From: Sphaerodactylus townsendi
Lineage: Eukaryota
Direction of reading: 5' to 3'
Assembly (NCBI RefSeq): GCF_021028975.2
Contig: NC_059428.1
Location: 149,482,001 to 149,546,000 of the forward strand
Length of the DNA: 64,000 nucleotides
A program made the position numbers and the translations under genes. Position 1 is the first letter of the stretch, and every line of letters starts with the position of its first letter. Positions 8,501 to 11,500 of this stretch are shown piece after piece. The notes under the pieces are model-generated. The model saw only the letters and a list, made by a program, of their open reading frames with translations. It ran no database searches and was not told the DNA's origin.

Positions 8501-11500
8501 CCTGGCAGAAACTTCACCCACCTCTACCACCCGGACCACGGCAACTGTTACATCTTCAACTGGGGCATGGAGGAAAAGCAGCTCATCTCTTCCAATCCTG
8601 GGGCAGAGTTTGGTGGGTACCCTGGCAGGATGGAGGGCTTGGGGGGAGGGGGGAGAGGACCGCAGCTGTGGGCAAGGTCACCAGCTTGGACTGTGTTTGT
8701 CCCTCTGTTTGGGCCGGCTGATGTTGGTTGGTCGCCCCAGGGAACCGTCTGCGCACCAAGGAGGCACTCAGCTACAAGCAGAGCAGCCTTTCCCGGCACA
8801 TTCCCCTGCCCCTCCCCTCCCCTGCTCCTGCCACCCCCTCACCCCCACCCAGGGCAGACAGGGCCCAGCCAGCCCTTCCTTTCTGTGCCAAACTTCTCTG
8901 CAGACACAACTCTGGCAAGACCCTCAGACGGGTGGGAATCTCCCCCCTCCGCTGGCCGCCAGTGGGTGACGTAGCCCTCACCGGGGTCCGCTTTCCTGTA
9001 GGGCCCTGTGGGTTTGGGGGAGGGGTTGACCCTGAGCCCTTCTGCCTGCAGGACTGAAGCTCATCCTGGACATCAACCAGACGGACTACCTGCCCTTCCT
9101 CACCACCACTGCTGGGGCCCGCCTCATGCTGCACGACAGGAAAAGCTTCCCCTTCCTCAAAGACGAGGGCATCTTCGCCATGGCCGGGACCGAGACCTCC
9201 ATTGGGGTGATGGTGGTAAGTGGGGCACCTGTCACTTCCGGCTTGGGCAGGGGGCCGTGCCCGTCGTCCGTCCTCTGCTCAGGCGCCACTCTGCTCGGAC
9301 AGGGCAAGCGGCAACCTTCTGCTCTTCTCAGGCAGGGTGTCCAAAGCGGCCTGCTTCCTCGGTCAGGCGGCAGGGAGGTGTCTAGCTCTGTTGGCTGCCC
9401 TTTTCTTCCCTTAGCCAAAGCCCCCAATCTCCCTCCAGAGGGTCGGCCCCTCCCTTCCCAGTCCCCTGCTCTGAGGACTTCCTTCTTCCCTCCCTCCCTC
9501 CCCCACCCCCCCGCAGGACGAACTGCAGCGGCTGGGGAATCCCTACAACGACTGCACCGCCAACGGGTCCGACATCCACGTGAAGAACCTCTACGAAAAC
9601 TACCTGGCACTGCAGGTGACGGAGCCCCTCCCACTGAGCGTGGCTGGTCTCTTGCTAGGACCGGGGTTGCTGGACTCCCCATGAGCTGCTATTGCCTGTC
9701 CAAGAACAGGAAGCGCCAACAGACTGTGTGGAGTGTGAAGAGAGAGCTGTGCCTTCCTCCCCTGGGGGGATATGTGGGTACTGAGGGTCGCTTGTGGGTA
9801 CCTGGATTTTGCCCCCCAACAGGGCAAAAAAACAGCTGGAGGAAAGGGCTACTGTTCCCCTTTTCTGCAAGCACTCTCCTTCTTCTAGGTGGAAATGAAG
9901 TCCTGCGGCAACTGCACGTTGGAGGAAGCCACTAAGAGGATTGCAGCAACAAGCCAGCGTAGAACAACGTATTCCATCCAGGTGAGTGACACGGGGCAGG
10001 TGGGGGTGGGGTGCAGCCCAGAGATGCTGCTGCTGCCCCCCCCCCCAAACTCACTTGAAGGTGGCAGGAAAATGGCCAGTTGGCGAGGTCAGTAACCACC
10101 TGGGGCGGGGGTTGGAGGGAACTTAGCTCTTCCCTCTCAGAGGCAGGAAGACAAGAGTCATGGTTGCTTTCTTTCCCTCAGGGGATCGTTGCCTGCTGGC
10201 ACCTTAAGAGAGAAAATGCCCCTTTGTGTACTGATAGCCCCATGCCGAAGGCTTTGCCATCCCTGGCTTCGTCTCTGCTTGGCGGCTGCTGCCAGAAGTC
10301 CTCTCTTTTGGGGATGGGGCTTGCTTTGGGGGGGGGGGAGGGACGTGCCCCCAGGCATCCTGTACCCAGCACCCTCTCCCCCTCCAGGCGTGCCTTCGGT
10401 CCTGCTTCCAGCAGCAGACGGTGGACACGTGCCGGTGCGGCCACTCTGCGTTCCCTCTGCCCGAAGGAGCTGAGTATTGCAACAACAACGACTATCCGGA
10501 TTGGGGTAAGGGTGGGACAGAACCGGCAGTGCCAGCATTCGGCCAGGCTGTGAAGTAAATGAGCACGCTGCGGTGTTGGGCGTGGTTTGGGGGAGTGGTG
10601 GTCCTGGGCTCAGTGGAAACCGCCAGCATGAAGAGGAGGCGTTTGGATTTATACCCCACCTTCCTCTCCTGTGAGGAGACTCAAGGTGGCCAACAAGCTC
10701 CTTTCCCTTCCTCTCCCCACAACAGGCCCCTTGTGAGGTAGGTGGGGCTGAGAGAGTTCTAAGAGAACTGTGACTAGCCCAAGGTCATGCGTAGGAGTGG
10801 GGAAAGACATCTGGTTCACCAGATAAGCCTCAGCCACTCAGGTGGAGGAGCAGGGAATCAAGCCCGGTTTTCCAGATTAGAATCCACCTGCTCTTAACCA
10901 CGACAGCTCTTGGGGTTTTACTGGTGGCAACGGGGCACCTGGCTGGTGGAACACTTCTGCTTGGGATCGAGTGCGGGGGGGCAGCGGGAAAGGGGAAGGC
11001 ATTCCTTGAAAACCAGTCTCCTCCTCTTCGTCACCCAACTGGGAGCTTCACAGTTCTCAGAGCAGCCGCCACAGACTCCCTCACAGGGAGCAATGGCCTC
11101 TGACTGTCCCTTCTGCTGTAACCCCACAGCCCACTGCTATTCCTCCCTGCGAAGGAGTCTGAGCCATCGGCAGTTTTGCATCGAGTCTTGCAAGGAAACC
11201 TGCAAGTAAGTCCAGTGGGAGCTGTAAGGGGGGGTTGCACAGATCGACAGGCACAGATTATGTGGGAGGGGGGTTGTAATAAGCAAGAAGTCCTTCGATC
11301 TGACTCTCTCCCCTCCTCTGACCTTATTTCACTGCAGCAACACCCAGTACAAGATGACCATTTCCATGGCTGACTGGCCATCAGAAGCTTCCGAGGTGAA
11401 CGAGATCCTCCTTTAAGTCTACCGGGGCGGGGGGGGGGTGTCCCCACCATCACCATGGCAGCAAACCTGGGGTGGATTCTTTGCGTGTAACCCAGTGGAT

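Follow-up and report, generated by a model that had tools for sequence, protein, structure and literature searches.

Tandem duplication of exon 7 as the probable origin of a loop in squamate beta-ENaC

Tandem exon duplicates occur in 7–17% of metazoan genes according to PMC3342872, which cites the accounts (Kondrashov and Koonin 2001; Letunic 2002) of a symmetric exon that gains an adjacent copy, a new intron separating the two. The exon structure and the thumb loop of ENaC are otherwise very conservative. In human SCNN1B, the segment considered here is presumably a single exon, and this plan agrees with eight non-squamate models that lack exactly the segment and with protein P0277, which reads through after its last residue. 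The SCNN1B gene of the gecko Sphaerodactylus townsendi has one intron more than that of birds, turtles, crocodilians, mammals and tuatara, and the segment is encoded by two pieces, 7a and 7b. The best overall explanation, to which we assign a probability of about 80%, is that exon 7 was duplicated in tandem, that the two copies decayed reciprocally, and that beta-ENaC gained a loop as a result. The sequence is already publicly available, and a mechanism of this kind is familiar. On this reading, what looks like an intron gain in a vertebrate would instead be the product of exon duplication followed by reciprocal decay. As a rare genomic change, the loop is, moreover, a clear marker of Squamata.

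The gene model and the divided exon

All positions refer to the window, that is, the whole 64-kb stretch of Sphaerodactylus townsendi DNA that was analysed (Table 1). Translation of its 14 SCNN1B exons, including both 7a and 7b, reproduced the public protein P0001 letter for letter, and a protein search with the last exon returned a 100% match to the same entry, 'amiloride-sensitive sodium channel subunit beta [Sphaerodactylus townsendi]'. Public gene models already contain both the split and the insert. The window protein contains PF00858 (DEG/ENaC, ASC domain; E 4e-103), and its best PDB matches are beta chains. The reading frame is intact, the exon plan is conserved, and COG7 is the neighbour.

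Table 1 Features of the SCNN1B region, in window coordinates
Feature	Position	Strand	Remarks
SCNN1B coding span	2151..14003	+	14 coding exons; the 693-aa product is the public protein P0001
Exon 6	9052..9215	+	ends in phase 0
Exon 7a	9517..9615	+	33 codons; putative first copy; ancestral exon start and conserved Cys kept, last codons decayed
Extra GT-AG intron	9616..9888	+	273 bases, phase 0, single copy
Exon 7b	9889..9981	+	31 codons; putative second copy; ancestral end, which leads into helix alpha4, kept; first part forms the new loop
C-x-N-C-T motif (C411, N413, C414, T415)	9904..9918	+	Cys pair and N-glycosylation sequon
Exon 8	10388..10505	+	starts in phase 0; encodes thumb helix alpha4
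COG7, last exon	16082-16249	-	PF10191, E 2e-13; downstream neighbour, tail to tail with SCNN1B

The junctions proposed in a preliminary description of this DNA were confirmed: 7a ends at CAG/GTGACG, and 7b follows TTCTAG/G and ends at CAG/GTGAGT, both in phase 0. The flanking introns share this phase (phase 0 at 9215, 9615 and 9981). The interruption of about 360 bases noted there is composed of the 273-base intron and 87 coding bases, and the gain of about 28 residues also held, since the two pieces encode 64 residues versus 36 in outgroups. With a small leave-one-out matrix, donor 9616 ranked first of 23 GT sites. Acceptor 9888, previously called strong, is the one used in the public model but ranked only third of 29 AG sites with this matrix. 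Among its competitors, use of 9822 would lead to a stop codon at 9886-9888, and use of 9871 would break the frame. Acceptor 9957 was rejected as the main site: it is in frame, but it falls outside the six best-scoring AGs, and its use would remove the conserved CxNCT. Retention of the 273-base intron leads to a stop after 22 further codons, and skipping of either 7a or 7b keeps the frame. We also rejected a non-canonical intron that would restore the ancestral 36 codons, as no sequon is present in the last eight residues in 20/20 squamates. A search for short fragments reading through the new splice sites yielded one candidate, which gave no match.

In DNA, the intron was seen in the window and in four runs of DNA-type contigs, which represent at most three samples from one study and the best of which may be the window's own source. 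In each of the four runs a single contig spans 9236-9995, with no joint or gap inside 9517-9981. This unbroken coverage makes an assembly error and a young repeat unlikely, and on these four runs an assembly artefact was ruled out. In run X4 the new intron carried five differences, whereas 7a and 7b (192 bases together) carried none, counts too small for inference.

Other parts of the locus merit brief record. An additional upstream coding exon (2151-2196, forward strand, 46 bases, phase 1), together with 5525-5532, adds 19 residues to the N terminus, ahead of the usual start. A similar extension is found in most lizard models and in two skink-like open reading frames (ORFs) of mRNA type; it is absent from four snake models, Heteronotia, Tiliqua X2, tuatara, chicken, crocodile and the mammal checked, and is possibly a second squamate change in the gene. 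Two related interspersed repeat copies lie at ~10690-10900 (intron 8) and ~16810-17000 (COG7 region), and presumably resemble a squamate SINE. Stretches of ~140 bases at ~11800-11945 (intron 10) and ~13140-13285 (intron 12) look similar by eye and are probably a repeat.

Distribution among squamates and other vertebrates

Two protein searches, from which the best 120 of 291 and the best 120 of 194 matches were taken, provided 156 distinct proteins. The squamate set (n = 22) comprises 20 named proteins and the two skink-like ORFs, which group with skinks (100/100) when the tree is computed with this region omitted. Among the matches listed, the segment has 58-78 residues (22-42 longer than in outgroups) in 20/22 squamate proteins, with geckos, skinks, a lacertid, a teiid, an amphisbaenian, anguimorphs, iguanians and snakes represented. 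The 134 non-squamate proteins listed come from birds, turtles, crocodilians, mammals, tuatara and one fish, with four unassigned; 121 of them have 36 residues, eight lack the segment, one has 13 and four could not be parsed. The long form was found in none of the 130 parsable proteins, tuatara included, whose segment has 36 residues. On an alignment of 130 DEG/ENaC proteins, the loop running between the conserved Cys and Tyr measures 43-63 residues in the 20 squamates versus 13-26 in the other 102 scorable rows. This Cys, nearly invariant among the 130 proteins, is C385 of P0001 (codon 9553-9555) and lies in 7a.

The long form in squamates, together with 36 residues in tuatara and other amniotes, places the event on the squamate stem. 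A species-specific event is rejected by the 20/22 squamate proteins, and a sauropsid-wide one by the lack of the long form among the non-squamate proteins listed. The preliminary description had named an already annotated, general sauropsid feature as the finding that would speak against it; the feature is indeed annotated and squamate-wide, but it is not sauropsid-wide, the segment being short in tuatara, birds, turtles and crocodilians.

In the Tiliqua X2 model the entire segment is missing. The Heteronotia binoei model P0004 (residues 356-391) has 36 residues, made up of the front of 7a and the derived end of 7b; it nests among loop-bearing geckos and is explained either by an exact secondary loss or by an error in the gene model.

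For squamates other than the gecko, the intron is read from protein patterns. The first Gln lies four residues past the Tyr in 17/20 squamates and seven past it in three skink-type proteins; only this distance was used, because a Gln at the split in 20/20 is circular, the split having been defined by the Gln. The residue after this Gln has a G-initial codon in 17/20, compared with 36% in the rest of the loop (a count across non-independent species), and directly after this Gln lie some length changes of the kind seen between isoforms. Both halves are contained in the two skink-like ORFs (683 and 695 aa, on contigs of 2,513 and 2,551 bases). Unbroken ORFs of this length on ~2.5-kb contigs would have to derive from spliced mRNA, and they constitute the transcript-type evidence for joint inclusion of 7a and 7b; splicing in Sphaerodactylus townsendi itself is predicted from DNA.

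Evidence on a probable exon duplication

The preliminary description regarded the split as a rare vertebrate intron gain. The additional intron stands, but most likely it arose by tandem exon duplication rather than by insertion into an exon, as 7b matches exon 7. By column counts, the outgroup exon reads P-Y-S-D-C-T-x-N-G-S and squamate 7b reads P-C-x-N-C-T-x-(D/E)-G-S. The likeness was first noticed by eye and tested afterwards with the last eight residues of 7b removed. A 19-sequence profile of the novel part of 7b placed the predicted register first of 588-666 windows in 14/14 outgroup proteins, which are orthologues and count as about one test. After removal of the two Cys columns, the register ranked 1-2 (core) or 4-12 (whole) in 5/5 outgroups tested. 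Profiles built separately from six clades gave ranks 1-3, and single 7b sequences ranked third or better in 17/19. Aligned globally with tuatara exon 7, 7b had a mean score of 1.05 versus -12.4 ± 3.2 for shuffled targets, with 0/1000 as high.

The spacing fits a copy of the whole exon followed by small deletions. The first Cys of 7b is preceded by eight residues in 11/19 (nine in outgroups), and CT and Tyr are 12 apart in 10/19 (14 in outgroups). Both copies have the Tyr that corresponds to human Y377, which in 7b is present in 15/20. The commonest squamate state is 33 + 33 codons, the gecko has 33 + 31, and the outgroup exon has 36. Separately, the first copy has 36 residues in the skink-type proteins P0130, P0072 and P0095, and that of P0130 ends like the tuatara exon; whether this length is ancestral or regained cannot be told.

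Other comparisons gave less. HMMER matched 7b to exon 7 weakly (E 0.03-0.56 for 14 sequences), and hhalign gave a probability of 0.3%. Of the single sequences, the 7b of Sphaerodactylus townsendi gave one of the poorest results (rank 8 with the cysteines, 64 without), and this gecko is one of the species that have drifted furthest. At the DNA level, gecko 7a and 7b were no more alike than codon shuffles (p 0.20 and 0.38; rank 197 of 616), and p 0.02 was reached only in a hand-picked first part. When the new intron was compared as DNA to introns 6 and 7, no clear remnant of a parent intron emerged: the end of intron 6 gave only a pyrimidine-rich match (11/300 shuffles as high), and intron 7 gave none. 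Decay of such remnants is expected after a duplication of this kind.

Duplication of a phase 0-0 exon accounts for an extra intron and a kept frame at once, and with reciprocal decay it explains the phases, the lengths and the extra cysteine. Judged from these sequences, the insert very probably stems from duplication of a 36-codon phase 0-0 exon with its flanks. In the steps we propose, exon 7 and its flanks would have been copied in tandem, creating the extra intron with the frame preserved, and the new intron would be chimeric, its donor side coming from intron 7 and its acceptor side from intron 6. Copy a would have retained the front and the Cys that pairs with the thumb, so that C385 of the first copy would keep the thumb disulfide; copy b would have retained the back, and the redundant halves of both would have become the loop. 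Within the loop, C414, the duplicated Cys, probably acquired its partner through a Tyr-to-Cys change (C411), and an Asp-to-Asn change would have made the sequon that replaced the lost one at human N378.

The loop, its possible roles and related systems

The insert stands in place of human N378, between Y377 and T379, in the loop from beta9 to thumb helix alpha4. The gecko sequence bears out the reported loss of the NTT sequon and gain of an NCT sequon, two cysteines and KR and RR sites. The old sequon is gone in 20/20 squamates; some sequon is present in 7b in 16/20 and none in 4/20. CxxC is found in 19/20 loops and CxNC[TS] in 15/20. The flanks of 7b drift, its length varying from 22 to 45 residues across squamates, while CxNCT persists. 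The new cysteines were gained as a pair and lost as a pair in the skink-like P0130, which has also lost the sequon and is the sole protein without CxxC.

An AlphaFold2 model from 130 sequences had a mean pLDDT of 83.8. In it beta9, the old loop and alpha4 scored 97-98, and the insert (78-87) formed a short helix, a CxxC loop and a helix, with alpha4 intact. The TM-score against human beta chains was 0.94-0.95, and the model predicts a normal overall fold with a surface loop ahead of helix alpha4. The second helix is probably a gecko trait, because other squamates are Gly/Pro/Ser-rich there. The model gives no cysteine pairing; the pairing discussed here is inferred from sequence.

For the role of the loop, we lean towards a tolerated appendage: its conserved residues would be kept for folding and glycosylation, and gating would be affected modestly at most. 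NCT sequons adjoining disulfides depend on the oxidoreductase of the oligosaccharyltransferase, and CxxC is a known half-site for zinc. Redox or metal roles of the loop may be considered, because CxxC is kept in 19/20. More tentatively, a loop of the same origin might be a selected regulator, acting as a CxxC redox switch, through competition with glycosylation at the enclosed Asn, or as a glycan tether of the thumb, and tuning open probability, sodium self-inhibition or the shear response in squamates. The long retention of CxNCT amid drifting flanks could mean a real regulatory role. The loop also lies about ten residues ahead of alpha4 R388 and F391, given in PMC11065748 as binding the activator S3969 in human beta, and the part of PMC4178938 that cites Shi 2011 reports that thumb-base mutations disturb gating. 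Fixed throughout a vertebrate order beside this activator site, the doubled loop amounts to a natural insertion experiment. Against regulation, the kept Cys pair is explicable by folding constraints alone, P0130 manages without the cysteines and sequon, and four of the 20 loops have no 7b sequon. We regard a gating switch formed by the CxNCT motif itself as unlikely.

It is improbable that 7a and 7b are spliced alternatively, singly or with 7b skipped, and that the long form is one isoform only. The frame tolerates skipping of either copy, the Heteronotia model is short, and tandem duplicates are generally linked to mutually exclusive splicing in PMC3342872. However, 7a alone would lack the conserved Tyr-Ser before alpha4 and 7b alone most of the loop; both mRNA-type ORFs hold the two halves, the intron is long enough for ordinary splicing, and no single-copy protein occurs among the 156 listed, although clustering at 90% could hide isoforms.

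Similarly doubtful is a true intron gain, as the preliminary description read the split, with foreign DNA (an old transposon or other genomic piece) entering exon 7, its bulk becoming the intron and its ends coding sequence. In its favour, the insert looks clean at the protein level, and the likeness between gecko 7a and 7b is not significant in DNA. Yet the new coding part lines up in register with exon 7 itself, 7b belongs to no Pfam family, and phase 0 on both sides with ~33 + 33 codons follows from duplication without extra assumptions. No further copy was present within the window, and none at ≥85% likeness in the four genomic runs. No source element, repeat nature or target-site duplication was found in the window or, at 85%, in those runs, a scope that an old, decayed element could escape.

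Most improbable is a loop that renders beta protease-activatable, as suggested from the KR and RR pairs of Sphaerodactylus townsendi, or that binds metal: dibasic pairs occur in 5/20 squamates at varying places and the furin motif R-x-K/R-R in 0/20, with no conserved polybasic pair around an inhibitory tract, activating cleavage requires paired sites around such a tract in the GRIP domain, elsewhere in the protein (PMC8791634), and one beta per canonical trimer supplies two cysteines only, with no other conserved ligand in the loop.

We found no description of the loop in full-text literature on ENaC or SCNN1B in squamates, a search that left most subscription journals outside. PMC11331422 reports robust scnn1b expression in an anole kidney set, its text does not contain 'insertion', and its supplement lists Anolis, Python and Pogona accessions, so that its alignment may contain squamate sequences. 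Squamate terms were absent from the accessible portion of PMC8662647, as was an account of the loop from those of PMC6197857 and bioRxiv 10.1101/2024.05.28.595834.

The closest known protein is human beta-ENaC (SCNN1B; PDB 6WTH, 6BQN, 9BTU chain B). The gecko protein is its orthologue (phmmer E 2e-278), with the PY motif and thumb cysteines kept and COG7 downstream, but has 28 more residues at N378, two more cysteines and one more intron. The fusion of exons 11 and 12 in rodent SCNN1D, as described in PMC8662647, is likewise a lineage-specific change to the conserved SCNN1 exon plan; there, however, the delta gene lost splice sites, whereas a squamate beta gene gained an exon. The GRIP inhibitory tracts of alpha- and gamma-ENaC are also lineage-specific extracellular additions that could regulate gating, but they lie in another domain, and the squamate loop has no conserved polybasic pair. 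With the tandem exon duplications described in PMC3342872, the locus shares a symmetric exon copied beside itself; unlike the usual mutually exclusive copies, the squamate copies are apparently both included, with the old job divided between the front of a and the back of b.
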